Below are positions 1 to 6,277 of a DNA stretch of 6,277 bases, piece after piece (the first letter of the stretch is position 1; each line of letters begins with the position of its first letter). Origin of the DNA: a virus (lineage: Duplodnaviria > Heunggongvirae > Uroviricota > Caudoviricetes); the IMG/VR virus record IMGVR_UViG_2690316166_000005; one strand, written 5' to 3'. Made by a program: the position numbers and the translations under genes. Below the pieces are notes generated by a model. The model was not told where the DNA came from. It saw nothing but the letters and a program-made list of their open reading frames with translations, and did not search any database.

Positions 1-117
1 GCCATGATTCGCCATATCACAAAGGCGGAGTTATCCCGCGTGGAGATAGTCGAGCTGCTCAGTCAGGAGTCGGAAAAATTTCACAATATCGGATTGTCTC
101 GCGGGGAGGTGCTTTGA
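1..117 (+). CDS. C-terminal fragment of an upstream phage early-region ORF (hypothetical protein); 5' end lies outside the window
   Basis: Frame 1 is open from position 1 to a TGA at 115-117 (translation ...[38 protein letters not shown]). The stop overlaps the next start as TGATG (TGA 115-117, ATG 117-119), typical of translational coupling in phage operons. Too short to appear in the ORF track; product unknown. Confidence 0.35.
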
Positions 118-416
118 TGTCCTGTTCTCATTCAGTTGTATTACTGAATAACGCCTTAAAAATCGCCGTTATGAAAAATGGCGACTTGTCTCTTATTCAA
201 CTTTGTCTTGATAAAGAAAAACGCGACATCACTGAATCTGTTATCGCGATTTATCAGAATGAATTAAACCTCCTGTCTGATGTGGTCAATTTACTTGTTA
301 AACGCGCTGTATTCCACAAGCAAATTTCCTCAGTGGATGAACTGACAAAATTAACGACAGAACTTGCCAGTTATTGCGCTGATGTATCCAGGAAACTTAA
401 CGATAAAAGGAGCTGA
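117..416 (+). CDS. hypothetical small protein of the P2-like early operon (~99 aa)
   Basis: ORF track 114..416; the ATG at 117 is preferred over the TTG at 114 because a GGGGAGG Shine-Dalgarno sits ~7 nt upstream. Stop TGA 414-416. Same strand and tight spacing with flanking genes. No recognisable motif. Confidence 0.6.
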   Translation: MSCSHSVVLLNNALKIAVMKNGDLSLIQLCLDKEKRDITESVIAIYQNELNLLSDVVNLLVKRAVFHKQISSVDELTKLTTELASYCADVSRKLNDKRS

Positions 417-418
417 TA

Positions 419-643
419 ATGCCGGACAACATAGATTTTATTCAGGAACAACAGGCTGAATTACTGGAGCGCCAGATTAACGCGGCAAGGGTAAAACATT
501 GCGGTGCTTCTGCGCTGGTTTGCGAAGAGTGTGACGCGCCAATTCCTGCTGCCCGTCGTGCGGCTTATCCGTCAGCCACGCGTTGTGTTTCCTGTCAGTC
601 AGTCTTTGAAGCAAAAAACAAACATTACCGGAGAACGGCATGA
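419..643 (+). CDS. TraR/DksA-family C4-type zinc-finger protein (74 aa)
   Basis: Strong SD AAGGAG (407-412) 6 nt before ATG 419. The protein has two CxxC pairs (C-E-E-C ... C-V-S-C) about 20 residues apart near the C-terminus and a helical N-terminus, the pattern of TraR/DksA zinc fingers; such a gene is found just upstream of the replication gene in P2-like phages. Stop TGA 641-643 overlaps the next ATG (ATGA). Confidence 0.85.
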   Translation: MPDNIDFIQEQQAELLERQINAARVKHCGASALVCEECDAPIPAARRAAYPSATRCVSCQSVFEAKNKHYRRTA

Positions 644-915
644 GTATTCGTATTGAAATTGGCGAACGTTATGTCGTTACCAGTGACAGCTTCCAGTTTA
701 TTCTCCACGAGAAAAAGAGAGCGGAAAGCGGTAAAAACGCCGGTCAGGAATGGCTGGCGGTGGTTGGTTATTACCCGAAATTAAGCCAGCTCGTTTCCGG
801 CCTGATGCATCACGATATTCTGACCGGAAGCGCAAAGTCTTTTGCTGATTTAAACGCGCAGGTTGAGCAACTCAGCAAGCGTTGTTCAGAGGCTTTTGGC
901 TCATATGGCCGTTAA
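640..915 (+). CDS. hypothetical small phage protein (91 aa)
   Basis: ATG 640 overlaps the preceding stop (ATGA at 640-643), with a GGAGAA SD-like sequence upstream. Ends TAA 913-915, overlapping the start of the replication gene. No recognisable motif. Confidence 0.6.
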   Translation: MSIRIEIGERYVVTSDSFQFILHEKKRAESGKNAGQEWLAVVGYYPKLSQLVSGLMHHDILTGSAKSFADLNAQVEQLSKRCSEAFGSYGR

Positions 916-3202
916 AGCCTCCGGGCGTTTTGTCCCTCCGTCAGCATTTGCTGCAGGCACCGGTAAGGCGTTTACCGGTGCTTATGCATGGAACGCGCCA
1001 CGCGAGGCTGTCGGGCGCGAAAGACCCCTTACACGTGACGAGATGCGTCAGGTGCAAGGTGTTTTATCCACGATTAACCGCCTGCCTTACTTTTTGCGCT
1101 CGCTGTTTACGTCACGCTATGACTACATCCGGCGCAATAAAAGCCCGGTGCACGGGTTTTATTTCCTCACATCCACTTTTCAGCGTCGTTTATGGCCGCG
1201 CATTGAGCGTGTGAATCAGCGCCATGAAATGAACACCGACGCGTCGATGCTGTTTCTGGCTGAGCGTGACCACTATGCGCGCCTGCCGGGAATGAATGAC
1301 AAGGAGCTGAAAAAGTTTGCCGCCCGTATCTCATCGCAGCTTTTCATGATGTATGAGGAACTCAGCGATGCCTGGGTGGATGCGCATGGCGAAAAAGAAT
1401 CGCTGTTTACGGATGAGGCGCAGGCTCACCTCTATGGTCATGTTGCTGGCGCTGCACGTGCTTTCAATATTTCCCCTCTCTACTGGAAAAAATACCGTAA
1501 AGGACAGATGACCACGAGGCAGGCATATTCTGCCATTGCCCGTCTGTTTAACGATGAGTGGTGGATTAGTCAGCTTAAAGGCCAGCGTATGCGCTGGCAT
1601 GAGGCGTTACTGATTGCTGTCGGGGAGGTCAATAAAGACCGTTCTCCTTATGCCAGTAAACATGCCATTCGTGATGTGCGTGCACGCCGCCAGGCAAATC
1701 TGGAATTTCTTAAATCGTGTGATCTCGAAAACAGGGAAACAGGCGAGCGCATCGACCTTATCAGTAAGGTGATGGGCAGTATTTCTAATCCTGAAATTCG
1801 CCGGATGGAGCTGATGAACACCATTGCCGGTATTGAGCGTTACGCCGCCGCAGAAGGTGATGTGGGGATGTTTATCACGCTGACCGCGCCGTCAAAGTAT
1901 CACCCGACACGTCAGGTTGGAAAAGGCGAAAGTAAAACCGTCCAGCTAAATCACGGCTGGAACGATGAGGCATTTAATCCAAAGGATGCGCAGCGTTATC
2001 TCTGCCGTATCTGGAGCCTGATGCGCACGGCATTCAAGGATAATGATTTACAGGTCTACGGTTTGCGAGTCGTCGAGCCACACCACGACGGAACGCCGCA
2101 CTGGCATATGATGCTTTTTTGTAATCCACGCCAGCGTAACCAGATTATCGAAATCATGCGTCGCTACGCGCTCAAAGAGGATGGCGACGAAAGAGGAGCT
2201 GCGCGAAACCGTTTTCAGGCAAAACATCTTAATCGGGGCGGTGCTGCGGGGTATATCGCGAAATACATCTCAAAAAATATCGACGGCTATGCACTGGATG
2301 GGCAGCTCGATAACGATAGCGGCAGACCGCTGAAAGATACTGCCGCGGCTGTTACCGCATGGGCGTCAACGTGGCGCATTCCGCAATTTAAAACGGTTGG
2401 CCTGCCGACAATGGGGGCTTACCGTGAACTACGCAAATTGCCTCGCGGCGTCAGCATTGCTGATGAGTTTGACGAGCGCGTCGAGGCTGCACGCGCCGCC
2501 GCAGACAGTGGTGATTTTGCGCTGTATATCAGCGCGCAGGGTGGGGCAAATGTCCCGCGCGATTGTCAGACTGTCAGGGTCGCCCGTAGTCCGTCGGATG
2601 AAGTTAACGAGTACGAGGAAGAAGTCGAGAGAGTGGTCGGCATTTACGCGCCGCATCTCGGCGCGCGTCATATTCATATCACCAGAACGACGGACTGGCG
2701 CATTGTTCCGAAAGTGCCGGTCGTTGAGCCTTTGACTTTAAAAAGCGGCATCGCCGCGCCTCGGAGTCCTGTCAATAACTGTGGAAAGCTCACTGGTGGT
2801 GATACTTCGTTACCGGCTCCCACACCTTCTGAGCACGCCGCAGCAGTGCTTAATCTGGTAGATGACGGTGTTATCGAATGGAATGACCCGGAGGTTGTGA
2901 GGGCGCTCAGAGGTGCATTAAAACACGGACTGAGAAGACCAAACCGTCAGCAAAGAAACGGAAGCCCGTTAAAACCGCATGAAATAGCGCCATCGGCCAG
3001 ACTGACCCGGTCGGAACGAATGCAAATTACCCGTATCCGCGTTGACCTTGCTCAGAACGGTATCAGGCCGCAGCGATGGGAGCTTGAGGTGCTGGCGCGT
3101 GGGGCAACCGTAAATTATGACGGGAAAAAATTCACTTACCCGCTCGCTGATGAGTGGTCGGGATTCTCAACAGTATTAGAGTCAAACTCAGTGAAGCGTT
3201 AA
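905..3202 (+). CDS. A: rolling-circle replication initiation endonuclease, P2 gpA-like (HUH superfamily), ~765 aa from ATG 905
   Basis: Long ORF (track 863..3202, which begins at a TTG). HUH motif P-H-W-H-M-M-L-F encoded at 2099-2107. Paired catalytic tyrosines in G-Y-I-A-K-Y-I-S-K (Tyr codons 2252-2254 and 2264-2266), the same YxxKY spacing as phiX174 gpA and P2 gpA. The size (~765 aa) and the N-terminus MAVKASGRF... are consistent with my recollection of P2 gpA. Start set at ATG 905, which overlaps the upstream ORF by 11 nt; TTG 863 is an alternative. Confidence 0.9.
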   Translation: MAVKASGRFVPPSAFAAGTGKAFTGAYAWNAPREAVGRERPLTRDEMRQVQGVLSTINRLPYFLRSLFTSRYDYIRRNKSPVHGFYFLTSTFQRRLWPRIERVNQRHEMNTDASMLFLAERDHYARLPGMNDKELKKFAARISSQLFMMYEELSDAWVDAHGEKESLFTDEAQAHLYGHVAGAARAFNISPLYWKKYRKGQMTTRQAYSAIARLFNDEWWISQLKGQRMRWHEALLIAVGEVNKDRSPYASKHAIRDVRARRQANLEFLKSCDLENRETGERIDLISKVMGSISNPEIRRMELMNTIAGIERYAAAEGDVGMFITLTAPSKYHPTRQVGKGESKTVQLNHGWNDEAFNPKDAQRYLCRIWSLMRTAFKDNDLQVYGLRVVEPHHDGTPHWHMMLFCNPRQRNQIIEIMRRYALKEDGDERGAARNRFQAKHLNRGGAAGYIAKYISKNIDGYALDGQLDNDSGRPLKDTAAAVTAWASTWRIPQFKTVGLPTMGAYRELRKLPRGVSIADEFDERVEAARAAADSGDFALYISAQGGANVPRDCQTVRVARSPSDEVNEYEEEVERVVGIYAPHLGARHIHITRTTDWRIVPKVPVVEPLTLKSGIAAPRSPVNNCGKLTGGDTSLPAPTPSEHAAAVLNLVDDGVIEWNDPEVVRALRGALKHGLRRPNRQQRNGSPLKPHEIAPSARLTRSERMQITRIRVDLAQNGIRPQRWELEVLARGATVNYDGKKFTYPLADEWSGFSTVLESNSVKR
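2755..2785 (+). other. candidate rolling-circle origin (nick site) embedded in the gpA coding sequence
   Basis: In P2 the origin cleaved by gpA lies inside the 3' part of gene A. The segment GCGCCTCGGAGTCCTGTCAATAACTG here resembles my unverified recollection of the P2 ori/nick region and sits about 80% of the way through the gene. Position is inferred, not demonstrated. Confidence 0.25.
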
Positions 3203-3240
3203 CTCAATAAATATGAGTTTATAAGTTAGGCCTCGAGATT

Positions 3241-3285
3241 TTGTAGAAAGGGATGTATACTGAGTATCGTATAGATTTGGAGTGA
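3241..3285 (+). promoter_or_regulatory. putative promoter and ribosome-binding region for the methyltransferase gene
   Basis: AT-rich 83-bp intergenic spacer after the gpA stop. -10-like hexamers TATACT (3256-3261) and TATAGA (3270-3275) and a -35-like TTGTAG (3241-3246) are present, but spacing is non-canonical. SD GGAG (3279-3282) lies 6 nt upstream of ATG 3289. Confidence 0.3.
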
Positions 3286-3288
3286 GTG

Positions 3289-4311
3289 ATGACTGTAAAG
3301 GTGATAGACCTTTTTTGTGGTGCTGGCGGATTAACTCATGGTTTGCAGCTTGCGGGGCTTGATGTCGTTGCAGGCATTGACCTTGAGGGGGAATGTAGGT
3401 TTCCCTATGAAAGAAACAATAAATCTAAGTTTATTGAGCAAGATATCGCTAAAGTAACAAAAGAGGAACTGCTGAGGCTTTATGGTGATGCGTCTGTAAA
3501 AGTATTGGCAGGATGCGCACCTTGCCAACCTTTTTCAAAATATACTCAAGGAAAAGATAAGGCTGATGATAAAAAATGGCCTCTTCTTTATGAGTTCGAA
3601 CGTTTAATTCGCGAAGTATCTCCAGAAATCGTAACAATGGAGAACGTTCCTGATGTAACTAAACATAAAGTTTATAATGATTTTTATAATTCATTGTTAA
3701 AGTTGGGCTATTATGTTTGGGCGTCTAAGATTGATTGTGTCGAATATGGAATCCCACAAAACCGTTCCCGTCATGTATTGTTGGCCTCAAAATTGGGGGC
3801 GATTGAGTTAGTAAAACGTGACGATGTTATTTTGAAAACAGTTAGAGATGCAATAGGAAATCTTCCTCCATTAGAAGATGGCCAAACAGATCCAAATGAT
3901 ATATTACATAGAGCCAGTAAATTAAATCCGATTAATAAAAAAAGAATTATACACTCTGTTCCTGGTGGTACATGGAAGGACTGGCCGAAAGAGTTGGTTG
4001 CCGCTTGTCATATGAAATCCAGCGGTAAAGGGTATGCTAGTGTATATGGGCGCATGTCTTGGGATAAGCCAAGTCCAACAATTACAACTCTTTGTTATGG
4101 TTTCGGGAATGGGCGTTTTGGACATCCAGAACAGCATAGAGCGATTTCTCTTAGAGAGGCTGCTTTATTGCAAACTTTCCCGATGGATTATATTTTTGTA
4201 GAAGACAAAAACAAGTTTGTTATAAGAAGTATTGGGAAAATGATAGGTAATGCTGTTCCTGTGGAACTAGGAAAAGCAATTGGGCAATCAATCAAGAACC
4301 ATTTAGAATGA
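3289..4311 (+). CDS. DNA (cytosine-5)-methyltransferase (C5-MTase), ~340 aa
   Basis: Canonical C5-MTase motifs in the canonical order: motif I F-C-G-A-G-G (3313-3330, AdoMet binding); motif IV G-C-A-P-C-Q-P-F-S with the catalytic Cys in PCQ (3520-3528); motif VI E-N-V (3640-3648); motif VIII Q-N-R-S-R; C-terminal motif X G-N-A-V-P-V. ATG 3289 is preferred over GTG 3286 on SD spacing. Stop TGA 4309-4311. Confidence 0.9.
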   Translation: MTVKVIDLFCGAGGLTHGLQLAGLDVVAGIDLEGECRFPYERNNKSKFIEQDIAKVTKEELLRLYGDASVKVLAGCAPCQPFSKYTQGKDKADDKKWPLLYEFERLIREVSPEIVTMENVPDVTKHKVYNDFYNSLLKLGYYVWASKIDCVEYGIPQNRSRHVLLASKLGAIELVKRDDVILKTVRDAIGNLPPLEDGQTDPNDILHRASKLNPINKKRIIHSVPGGTWKDWPKELVAACHMKSSGKGYASVYGRMSWDKPSPTITTLCYGFGNGRFGHPEQHRAISLREAALLQTFPMDYIFVEDKNKFVIRSIGKMIGNAVPVELGKAIGQSIKNHLE

Positions 4312-4312
4312 T

Positions 4313-4340
4313 AAAATGGCCTGCTTTACAGGCCTTATAA
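4313..4340. terminator. putative bidirectional intrinsic terminator between convergent genes
   Basis: Perfect inverted repeat GGCCTG (4318-4323) / CAGGCC (4329-4334) with a 5-nt loop, flanked by an A-run on one side and T-rich sequence on the other. It lies exactly between the MTase stop (4311) and the HEPN gene stop (4341). The stem is short (6 bp), so strength is uncertain. Confidence 0.45.
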
Positions 4341-5021
4341 CTATTGTTCTAAATATTCATTATTATTTATATAGTGCTCTATATTATTCACGATAGCATC
4401 AAGATAGGCGATTACTTCTAATGAAATATTCTCTAAGTCCTGATATGAAACATTTTTTCCAATCTCAGCAAATGATACATTGCCATGAGATAAATCATTA
4501 CGATGTTGTTTAACAGTGGCTAATTTTTCACCATGTTTAGTGTGAGTGTAATCGGAATGTGTAGAAAAACCATATATTTTCGATTTTTCTTTGATTTCCT
4601 CTCTATCAATATTTCCTGAGAATATTTTCTTTTTGTTGAACGTGCCATAAGATATACCGCAAGATATACCTTTGGTAAGGTGATTAACTAAACTTTCAAC
4701 ATTTACAGATTCATTTTTTAATCTTTTTAATATTTCTGACCTGAGATTTTTCCTGAGTTTGTCAAATTCTACGTTTCTATCATAAATAGTCTCATGAATA
4801 AGGCAGATAGCTTCTCTCATTGTTGATTCAATGAGGTTATATAACAGTATATATACTGCTCCCTTTAGAGTTTTTCGTGATTGAGCAGTAATGGAGAACT
4901 TATGTTCTTTATCATCAGCTGATATCAGTTCTGCACCGGCATACTCAATAAATTTCAAAAGATCCAAATAGGCCAAGATCTCTCCTGACCTTTCGTCAAA
5001 ATCCTCACGAAAACGATCCAT
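4341..5021 (-). CDS. HEPN-domain protein (MAE_28990/MAE_18760-like predicted RNase), 226 aa
   Basis: ATG at 5019-5021 (- strand) with an AGAGGA SD 5 nt upstream, located inside the 3' end of the upstream gene. Only 1 nt separates the upstream TAA (5023-5025) from this ATG. Contains an Rx4H HEPN-type motif, H-R-N-D-L-S-H-G (Arg codon 4500-4502, His codon 4485-4487), near the C-terminal third of a small, predicted all-helical protein. Stop TAG 4341-4343. Confidence 0.75.
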   Translation of the reverse strand: MDRFREDFDERSGEILAYLDLLKFIEYAGAELISADDKEHKFSITAQSRKTLKGAVYILLYNLIESTMREAICLIHETIYDRNVEFDKLRKNLRSEILKRLKNESVNVESLVNHLTKGISCGISYGTFNKKKIFSGNIDREEIKEKSKIYGFSTHSDYTHTKHGEKLATVKQHRNDLSHGNVSFAEIGKNVSYQDLENISLEVIAYLDAIVNNIEHYINNNEYLEQ

Positions 5022-5022
5022 G

Positions 5023-6165
5023 TTAATCCTCTAATAATTTATCCCGAACATATTCAATTCGTTCAATTACCTTCACGCGACTATTAGCTCCGTCGGAAGT
5101 GGTCAATCGTTTGAATTCTTCTGAGCTTAGCCAATCTAAGTTCTTGGGAACAAGGTCAGGGACTTCACGTAATGCAAGTGCTGCGCCAACAGCGAGAGAT
5201 TCGAATCTAACTCGAGGTGTAGATTTTGCAGTAATAGTTTTCTTGAATCCTGCTGGGAAATAGTTTTCAACAAAAGATAGAACATTAGCAAACTCTTGTT
5301 TCATTGAGTTTTGTTTAGTTTCGTCTATATCTCGATTTTCTGACATATAGTCATTTAGAAAATCCCGTACGGAATGATCAAAGTTCTTGTACTTATCTAC
5401 GTAGGCAAAGAATCTTAATGTAAATTCTAACCGTTCATCTCGTTTTTCTTTAGTCTGAGATAAAGGTGCTAATTCTTTAAATTTAGGTATTGTTGAGCAT
5501 GGCTTAATAACCTGTGTATATAAATTTGTTGAACCAAGTTCTGATCCTTTACGGACTTCCATATCTTTCAATATATCGCTGCCAGAGTTAATACGCTCAA
5601 AAAGATCTCTACGGGTTTCTTCATTGCATTTAGAACTCAATTCTATAACGCGGACAGGAATTCTCATGAAACGACGTTGACGTGATAATGGTAAATCTTG
5701 GAATTTGAAACCATTAAGGACGTCTAAAGATTTCAGGTCTTGTAAAACTAATTCATTTTGGATAAAAGCGTGTATAGTCCTAACTCGTTGTGAGCCATCA
5801 ACAATCTCAATTCGCCCATCTAAATCGGGATCTTCGGAGAGAACATCTGCTATAAATATATATGGTATAGGAAAACCCAAAATCAAAGACTCTATCAATT
5901 TTGATTGTCTTTTTTCACTCCAAACAAAATCCCTTTGATAATCAGGAACAAAGAGTTCGTTAGTATCATCCTCTAATCCGTTATGATACTTATTAACTAA
6001 TAACTCAACGGTAAATTCTTTGGTCTCAAAATCCACATCCTTTTGCTCAGCACGAATTTGCTCTTCAGCGTTTTGCTTTATCACCTCTAGCTGAGCAAGC
6101 AACTCTGCTCTTTTCTTGGCATTATCTTCATTTTCTAGTTGAGATTTTAAATCAATAATGTCCAT
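5023..6165 (-). CDS. DUF262 (ParB-like / GmrS-like N-terminal domain) protein, ~380 aa
   Basis: ORF track 5023..6183, beginning at a TTG. ATG at 6163-6165 (- strand) is preferred because an AAGGGAA SD lies 7 nt upstream. Hallmark DUF262 motifs: V-P-D-Y-Q-R-D-F-V-W (DYQR codons 5932-5943) and I-V-D-G-S-Q-R (DGSQR codons 5785-5799, the DGQQR-type motif). No HNH/DUF1524-like motif was recognised in the C-terminal half. Confidence 0.8.
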   Translation of the reverse strand: MDIIDLKSQLENEDNAKKRAELLAQLEVIKQNAEEQIRAEQKDVDFETKEFTVELLVNKYHNGLEDDTNELFVPDYQRDFVWSEKRQSKLIESLILGFPIPYIFIADVLSEDPDLDGRIEIVDGSQRVRTIHAFIQNELVLQDLKSLDVLNGFKFQDLPLSRQRRFMRIPVRVIELSSKCNEETRRDLFERINSGSDILKDMEVRKGSELGSTNLYTQVIKPCSTIPKFKELAPLSQTKEKRDERLEFTLRFFAYVDKYKNFDHSVRDFLNDYMSENRDIDETKQNSMKQEFANVLSFVENYFPAGFKKTITAKSTPRVRFESLAVGAALALREVPDLVPKNLDWLSSEEFKRLTTSDGANSRVKVIERIEYVRDKLLED

Positions 6166-6277
6166 GTCTAGTTCCCTTAACAAGTGTTAAAAATTGAAGC
6201 GGATAGCATACCGCATAGATCATGAAAAATGCCATCATGTGCATGGTGCGTATTCCGCTCTATTCGATCACGGATTG

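Follow-up and report, generated by a model that had tools for sequence, protein, structure and literature searches.

A C5 cytosine methyltransferase, a DUF262 protein and a HEPN protein as a candidate three-gene defence cassette of P2-like and other prophages

Introduction

DUF262 domains are nucleoside triphosphatases (NTPases) that read DNA modification in GmrSD, BrxU, SspE and DndI (PMC12065111, PMC10952713), and HEPN domains with an Rx4-6H motif are RNases (Anantharaman et al., 2013). The two are joined in PD-T4-2, a system of Escherichia coli ECOR65 described as “DUF262, HEPN” (Vassallo et al., 2022), which was validated against phage T4 natively and in K-12, whose deletion from ECOR65 restores T4 plaquing, and whose HEPN protein matches, by HHpred, HEPN_RiboL-PSP (97.8%) and HEPN_MAE_28990 (96.9%) (PMC9519451). 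In the Menshen system (NsnABC), NsnA combines a ParB-DUF262 domain with a DNA-binding ParBDB domain and is the proposed sensor module (PMC12065111). The theme of the present work is a locus in a stretch of viral DNA of 6,277 nucleotides (IMG/VR virus record IMGVR_UViG_2690316166_000005; hereafter the window, meaning the whole stretch analysed), in which genes for a DUF262 protein (A) and a HEPN protein (B) face a gene for a C5 cytosine DNA methyltransferase, or methylase (M). We read it as a defence cassette of three genes that spreads horizontally, is cargo of the P2 hotspot and resembles restriction-modification with an RNase effector, a reading for which we hold the case to be evenly balanced.

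Neither the neighbourhood nor the underlying idea is new. An association of ParB, methylase and MAE_28990 genes was described in 2013, the ParB protein being read there as a DNase (Anantharaman et al., 2013), and later work has treated DUF262 as an NTPase sensor (PMC12065111, PMC10952713). Makarova et al. (2013) viewed DUF262 proteins, often fused to nuclease domains including HEPN, as cell-death modules attached to DNA-modification systems. The P2-hotspot table of Rousset et al. (2022) lists WP_000351260, WP_001697730 and WP_000373633 together, without testing; these are the accessions of the 98%-identical prophage copy of the locus, which is missing from the systems that they tested, as the table of these nowhere contains the term “DUF262”. 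Descriptively, the 2013 neighbourhood and the 2022 catalogue entry are the same thing as the locus discussed here, in the form of bioinformatic listings with no name, experiment or mechanism, and a full-text literature search found no study of the triad or of the mechanism of PD-T4-2. The locus is a methylase-linked clade of DUF262–HEPN systems that had been catalogued earlier. An earlier annotation of the window (the original prediction) had not recognised the DUF262–HEPN pair among the named, characterised systems, novelty being left to a search, and this view has to be given up because PD-T4-2, which is itself DUF262 plus HEPN, has a HEPN protein of the same families and protects against T4, makes this an architecture already named and validated, besides the neighbourhood having been known since 2013. 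Likewise, bioinformatic work of 2013 had foreseen restriction-modification-like logic that ends in an RNase effector, which would add a genuine concept if demonstrated, and a validated two-gene relative exists.

A mobile three-gene unit

The window covers the early-gene end of a P2-like prophage, where small early genes are followed by the gene for the replication endonuclease gpA and then, in an AT-rich stretch, by three genes encoding the C5 methyltransferase on the plus strand and the HEPN and DUF262 proteins on the minus strand (Table 1). Related loci were collected with a profile built from 16 diverse HEPN homologues, which gave 80 genome loci from distinct species (mostly cyanobacteria, plus gammaproteobacteria and Acidobacteria) and 46 viral loci from IMG/VR. 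A DUF262 gene lies directly upstream of the HEPN gene, on the same strand, in all 126 (80/80 genome, 46/46 viral); the spacer between them measures -4 to +6 nt wherever both genes are full-length among the genome loci (67/67), and in the viral loci the two directly abut (46/46). The methylase gene adjoins this pair in each of the 43 informative viral loci, namely those whose contig does not end directly after the HEPN gene, being convergent in 37 and co-directional upstream in 6. Among the genomes, an M orthologue (51-57% identical) adjoins the pair in 35/79 informative loci, usually in convergent orientation, the 3' ends overlapping by 4 nt, and an M-A-B operon is found in L079, L082 and L091; of the 70 loci compared by identity and tree, to which the window and three further enterobacterial copies were added, 37 are methylase-linked.

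The three genes are also shared between unrelated backbones. Klebsiella carries the cassette in lambdoid prophages, between replication genes and the NinG/Q region, and Salmonella in P2-like prophages, at the gpA–portal hotspot, with identical spacing of DUF262, HEPN and convergent 340-aa C5 methylase genes in both kinds of prophage. DNA homology among a P2-like (Salmonella, L008), a lambdoid (Klebsiella, L002) and a Tatumella locus (L013) is confined to a single block of 3.0-3.2 kb, from window position 3226/3232 to 6165/6245, which comprises exactly M, B and A plus short flanks (L002 5777-8960; L008 5766-8960); given these limits, the three genes form a discrete mobile block, one with no recognisable recombinase of its own. 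The homology ends about 60-75 nt past the methylase start and, on the other side, at the DUF262 start or at most about 230 nt upstream of it. In one Salmonella P2-like prophage (L010, 7933-8973), an insertion sequence (IS) with an rve-type transposase separates the HEPN and methylase genes, and all three open reading frames (ORFs) are intact.

A neighbour-joining tree of A has methylase-linked loci on all deep branches, and methylase-less loci as one derived cyanobacterial clade plus sporadic losses, with a methylase remnant kept in L023; the methylase-linked state appears to be ancestral on this tree. Among genome loci, 13/44 methylase-less ones have a truncated or fragmented A or B, as against 1/35 methylase-linked ones, a difference whose nominal p of 0.002 overstates the case because the loci are phylogenetically related. 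In cyanobacteria, methylase-less loci (within L029-L092) often sit beside aconitase B, ClpB or SecA. A different large methylase or helicase at such loci was considered and rejected, the recurrent Pfam-identifiable neighbours of 870-1,100 aa being the housekeeping proteins aconitase B, ClpB, SecA and CarB; two further large neighbouring ORFs (L023, L024) have no Pfam match, and these neighbours are taken as surroundings of the system and not as components.

The triad also occurs in sequenced phages, namely Peduovirus P24B2 and Moraxella Mcat24-32, whose DUF262 proteins show 43-45% identity. In the distant viral set, identity has a median of 59% for M, 45% for A and 31% for B, which makes M the most conserved member, and the Moraxella phage methylase is 59% identical to that of the window over its full length; the order M > A > B is the usual pattern of restriction-modification. 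Taken with the linkage described above, this leads us to regard it as likely that the locus is a defence module with the methylase as part of its functional unit. The original prediction had set the unit at two genes and called it a candidate defence operon. Its limits were too narrow, the convergent methylase gene outside them moving with the pair as the 3.0-3.2 kb block, both between unrelated phage backbones and between phyla, while the defence role that it attributed to the pair remains plausible by homology to validated DUF262 plus HEPN systems.

The three proteins and their gene junctions

Catalytic motifs are intact in all three proteins. M matches PF00145 (E = 3.4e-58) and TIGR00675 (dcm, 130 bits), and its translation contains FCGAGG, PCQ, ENV, QNRSR (QxRxR) and GNAVP, with the catalytic cysteine of PCQ at 3523-3525. 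The closest solved structure is M.HaeIII (E = 8e-22, mainly over the N-terminal catalytic half), and the target specificity of M is not inferable from this best solved relative. We propose that M is the self-marking component of the cassette. Two other methylases bear mention. That of Peduovirus P24B2 (L093, 2337-3041) is annotated with 234 aa, covers only the N-terminal half of the C5 methylase profile and may be truncated or mis-annotated. At an IMG/VR locus (L134, 2795-3916), a different C5 methyltransferase, 29% identical to that of the window, occupies the upstream co-directional slot, which suggests that the methylase may be exchangeable within the cassette.

The identification of A as a DUF262 protein, first made from motifs, is confirmed by a match to PF03235 GmrSD_N (E = 8.2e-26, 91.8 bits against a cut-off of 33.2), by the motifs DYQRDFVW (5943-5920; QRxxxW) and DGSQR (5799-5785), both where they had been placed, by a third motif, FERIN (5601-5587), and by fold matches. 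The nucleotide-binding motifs QRxxxW, DGxQR and FxxxN are invariant across homologues and are the N-terminal DUF262 motif set of GmrSD, BrxU and SspE. The structure model of A (pLDDT, the predicted local distance difference test score, 79) matches BrxU, PadC, SspE, ParB N-domains, KorB, sulfiredoxin and DndI; residues 214-380 are all helical in it, and no second Pfam domain and no nuclease domain are recognised. The start is taken as ATG 6165, preceded by AAGGGA; the ORF listing extends to TTG 6183, and RefSeq annotates the 380-aa form in near-identical prophages. Within residues 1-45, a long, charged, coiled-coil-like helix (residues 3-40) precedes the DUF262 domain, and may correspond to the optional NsnA-N region known from Menshen or be a dimerisation element. 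A is predicted to be an NTPase and a sensor of the DNA modification state. A sequence search of solved structures with A returned nothing; NCBIfam has no family for A or B, and PHROGs places them in the unknown-function families phrog_2598 and phrog_3846.

B matches PF18737 HEPN_MAE_28990 (E = 5.8e-29, 102.2 bits, cut-off 26.8) and, in second place, PF18735 HEPN_RiboL-PSP (E = 8e-9, 36.1 bits, cut-off 28.4). Its Rx4H motif, R-NDLS-H, has R174 at codon 4502-4500 and H179 at codon 4487-4485, exactly the codons named in the original prediction, whose HEPN assignment these profiles and the HEPN fold of the model uphold. The R, N, D, L and H of the motif are at least 90% conserved in the 16 diverse homologues, and the conserved N-terminal YNLIES helix lies at 4841-4824. 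The model of B is an all-alpha HEPN fold that resembles HEPN RNase toxins and Csm6, the closest solved folds being HEPN toxins of HEPN–MNT systems, and a sequence search of solved structures with B gave only noise. B is predicted to be an RNase effector that uses the Rx4H site. The HEPN profile family numbers 1,716 clusters at 50% identity (E <= 1e-3), or 383 at E <= 1e-30.

The genes of A and B are separated by one nucleotide, and the Shine-Dalgarno (SD) sequence GAGGA lies inside the coding sequence of A, 5 nt ahead of the ATG of B. This arrangement, which had been read correctly at the outset, suggests translational coupling, and the spacer conserved across loci supports the co-expression drawn from it then, as an operon of the two genes; since the junction is conserved and the pairing holds in all loci, A and B would be co-translated and probably form a complex. 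On the 3' side of the HEPN stop, in the 29-nt spacer between the convergent genes, a hairpin (4334-4318) with a folding energy of -13 kcal/mol (z = -3.3 versus shuffles) would close the DUF262–HEPN operon as an intrinsic terminator-like site. A promoter scan gave 8 sites versus 11.6 expected from shuffles, and no promoter is assignable.

Table 1. Coordinates of the cassette and adjoining features in the window
Feature	Position	Strand	Basis
gpA replication endonuclease	863-3202		PF05840, E = 2e-123
C5 cytosine DNA methyltransferase (M), 340-341 aa	3286-4311 (GTG 3286 or ATG 3289)	+	PF00145, motifs
Terminator-like GC-rich hairpin, GGCCTG-TAAAG-CAGGCC + ATTTTAT	4318-4334	-	Terminator scan, RNA fold
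HEPN protein (B), MAE_28990 / RiboL-PSP type, 226 aa	4341-5021	-	Pfam profiles, Rx4H motif
A–B junction	5019-5031	-	SD GAGGA 5031-5027, TAA 5025-5023, C 5022, ATG 5021-5019
DUF262 (ParB/GmrSD_N) protein (A), 380 aa	5023-6165	-	Pfam profile, motifs
Native upstream leader of A, 81 nt, with SD AAGGGA 6178-6173	6166-6246	-	Homology to L001, L097 ends at 6246
Terminal sequence of IS21-family IS, not part of the system	6247-6277	.	Three-way alignment; homology to intact prophages L001, L097 stops at 6246

Relation to known systems

PD-T4-2 and the present locus have in common a DUF262 gene followed by a stand-alone HEPN gene, the same two HEPN Pfam families and an origin in E. coli. They differ in that no methylase was cloned with PD-T4-2 or is needed for it to work, whereas the clade of the window carries a tightly linked C5 methylase, and in size, the HEPN protein of the window being longer with 226 aa, while the HHpred matches of PD-T4-2B end at residue 163 and the two PD-T4-2 ORFs together span only 1,540 bp. 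In PADLOC profiles, on which this comparison rests, A matches the PD-T4-2_A model (E = 2.5e-35, 120 bits, 300 residues) but scores higher with Menshen NsnA (E = 1.7e-54, 184 bits, residues 17-380 against model positions 25-376/385), and B has 0 matches at E <= 1, PD-T4-2_B included; the HEPN proteins of P24B2, Mcat32 and Klebsiella phage ST16-OXA48phi5.4 likewise match no PADLOC family at E <= 0.01. The locus thus looks like a relative of PD-T4-2 without clearly being a member. A has 17 PADLOC matches in all, those to SspE, HEC-05 and HEC-06 spanning only the first ~40-90 residues of the DUF262 domain, and a weak one to the REase_II model PDLC03418 (E = 9.4e-6) being confined to the DUF262 region, with no nuclease fold recognised.

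Likeness to Menshen extends over the full length of A, including a helical C-terminal domain equivalent to ParBDB, but the cassette has neither the ABC ATPase NsnB nor the inPIN-nuclease NsnC, and has instead a single HEPN protein and a linked methylase. Identity with Menshen was therefore rejected: the gene after A encodes a HEPN protein, no ATPase gene belongs to the cassette in any context examined, and NsnC is absent. PADLOC v2.0.0 models would not call the locus a complete system, neither PD-T4-2 nor Menshen. Dazbog, too, is a two-gene abortive-infection system with DUF262 in its first gene, and it responds to C5 cytosine methylation. There, however, a phage methylase is the trigger and methylated DNA is non-self, whereas here the cassette brings its own methylase gene, so that either the polarity differs from that of Dazbog or sequence context is discriminated; models of DzbA and DzbB are not among the 17 PADLOC matches of A or the 0 of B.

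In SspABCD-SspE and DndBCDE-DndI, a DUF262 protein reads the mark of a linked self-modification module, as is proposed here, but the mark is phosphorothioation rather than the 5-methylcytosine (5mC) expected of a single predicted methylase. SspE and DndI, like GmrSD and BrxU, have DUF262 fused to a DUF1524/His-Me DNA nuclease, in place of which the cassette has a separate HEPN effector, a predicted RNase; A lacks DUF1524, and assignment to the GmrSD-type Type IV enzymes was rejected. PrrC–EcoprrI offers another parallel, as a HEPN RNase embedded in a DNA-modification/restriction locus and inactive until infection, although PrrC is an ABC-ATPase–HEPN fusion that guards a complete Type Ic system and the present locus has a DUF262 regulator and no restriction subunit. 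A HEPN–MNT toxin–antitoxin system was also rejected, there being no MNT protein and the partner being a DUF262 protein.

Klebsiella phage ST16-OXA48phi5.4 carries, between tail-fibre and tail genes, which is the second P2 defence hotspot, a pair (L095, 3363-5266) of an NsnA-like DUF262 protein of 407 aa and a RiboL-PSP HEPN protein of 220 aa, without a methylase. The HEPN protein is not BLASTP-similar to that of the window and matches no PADLOC model, and this pair was set aside as an instance of PD-T4-2, being a divergent variant instead.

Proposed mechanism and alternatives

In the mechanism we propose, M would write a 5mC mark on resident DNA, host chromosome and prophage alike, and A, by means of its ParB-type NTPase and its helical C-terminal domain (the NsnA/ParBDB equivalent), would read the modification state of DNA. 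B, made from the transcript of A by coupled translation, would be held by A in a probable complex until A met DNA without the mark of the cassette, or until methylation failed; B would then be released to cut cellular or phage RNA, arresting translation and aborting the infection. The logic would be that of restriction-modification, the endonuclease being replaced by an RNase. What we observe are the domain identities, the intact motifs, the conserved A–B junction and the linkage and joint transfer of the three genes; what we infer are a complex of A and B, the attack on RNA and the direction in which the signal works. That unmethylated DNA switches the system on is possible but slightly doubtful, and the complete scheme, an epigenetic immunity in which 5mC marks self from non-self, a DUF262 NTPase licenses a HEPN RNase, and restriction acts on RNA with no DNA endonuclease, is offered tentatively, as somewhat doubtful.

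Several facts weigh against this scheme. At least 31 intact DUF262–HEPN pairs of the cyanobacterial clade have no adjacent methylase, A and B are intact in L024 after loss of the methylase, and PD-T4-2 works in K-12 as two genes, without a methylase (PMC9519451). GmrSD and BrxU (PMC10952713), and probably Dazbog too, become active on modified DNA, which is the opposite polarity. The RNase activity of B and the complex of A and B are predictions from family membership. The copy in the window, moreover, may be poorly expressed, given an IS21-family element 82 nt upstream of its DUF262 gene.

Some of these facts suit a different explanation, in which A and B alone make up a Type IV-like, modification-dependent system akin to PD-T4-2 or Dazbog, A sensing foreign modified DNA (glucosylated hydroxymethylcytosine, foreign methylation) and triggering the HEPN protein, and the methylase is separate cargo of the same mobile block, for example an anti-restriction orphan methylase shielding the phage genome. 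PD-T4-2 acts on T4, whose cytosines are modified, and needs no methylase; the DUF262 proteins of GmrSD, BrxU and Dazbog respond to modified DNA; Rousset et al. label a Vibrio locus of DUF262 plus HEPN_MAE_28990 “Type-IV restriction”; methylase-less pairs exist; and M, being convergent, is a separate transcription unit. Yet a passenger does not explain why one methylase orthologue stays linked while A drops to 39-49% and B to 26-36% identity, why the linkage occurs in two gene orders, M-A-B operons included, and in non-phage chromosomal settings (cyanobacteria, Acidobacteria), or why 3' ends overlap by 4 nt. On the tree of A, moreover, linkage to the methylase looks ancestral, and we consider the Type IV-like explanation unlikely.

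The tight linkage and co-transfer of M would also fit a guard of the PrrC–EcoprrI kind, in which A and B watch the methylase or resident methylation and the RNase fires only if an invader blocks methylation (for example by means of an S-adenosylmethionine hydrolase or an inhibitor of the methylase). The pair would then be a back-up defence or an addiction device, and such logic was proposed for HEPN genes embedded in restriction-modification loci by Anantharaman et al. (2013). The cassette, however, consists of M, A and B only, with no recognisable restriction endonuclease as a first line, nothing points to contact between M and A, and most loci have M on the opposite strand, which makes a guard improbable. 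An ordinary toxin–antitoxin or prophage-addiction module, in which the DUF262 protein restrains a HEPN toxin with no DNA sensing and the methylase is irrelevant, would account for the translational coupling and for the closest solved folds of B being HEPN–MNT toxins, HEPN toxins being common in such modules. It is nonetheless very unlikely, for the partner is not MNT or a small antitoxin but a 380-aa NTPase with invariant nucleotide-binding motifs and an NsnA-like helical C-terminal domain, its upstream gene is far larger than that of the putative toxin, and the related PD-T4-2 is a phage-defence system.

Should the methylase be a working part, the cassette would join epigenetic self-marking, as in restriction-modification and Dnd/Ssp, with abortive infection by a HEPN RNase, two ideas that are as a rule treated separately, and would provide a simple three-gene E. 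coli model of how DUF262 turns modification state into an effector signal, a question still open for PD-T4-2, Menshen and Dazbog. The proposed 5mC-licensed immunity, if true, would be a widespread class reaching from cyanobacteria to enteric P2-like, lambdoid and Moraxella phages; DUF262 readers would then work with either polarity, and PD-T4-2 could be a methylase-free, modification-triggered form. Should the methylase be a passenger, the locus would be a divergent PD-T4-2-like pair of modest interest.

Prophage setting of the window

GC content falls from 0.50-0.59 across gpA to 0.29-0.41 from ~3150 onward, so the AT-rich island starts upstream of the methylase gene and not at the DUF262–HEPN pair. 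In E. coli O169:H41, a complete P2-like prophage inserted beside cpxP carries a 98%-identical copy between its gpA and portal genes, a site known as a hotspot from the work of Rousset et al. (2022) and Vassallo et al. (2022); the earlier placement of the pair in an AT-rich island at the P2 defence hotspot agrees with both the GC profile and this position.

The far end of the window is of different origin. Positions 6241-6277 (37 nt) agree at 100% identity with DNA beside an ISSso4-like istAB element in NZ_CP172185 (E. coli GF60), and the insertion lies 82 nt upstream of the DUF262 ATG, where the intact relative L001 continues into the spacer before the P2 portal gene; the native promoter of the operon may have been lost or replaced in the window. 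A clone of 4341-6277 could be toxic or promoterless, because it omits the methylase and ends in the IS21-family element, and for cloning of the pair it is advisable to include the methylase gene and an IS-free upstream region, as is found in NZ_CP024223 (2524444-2527700).

No near-identical DNA was found among sequenced phages. Of 5,426 complete E. coli genomes, 9 carry the cassette; collection blocks in which the same DUF262 protein is indexed number 487 for Klebsiella and 227 for Salmonella, and positions 1-6246 of the window are 100% identical to the IMG/VR contig UViG_2558860170_000011.

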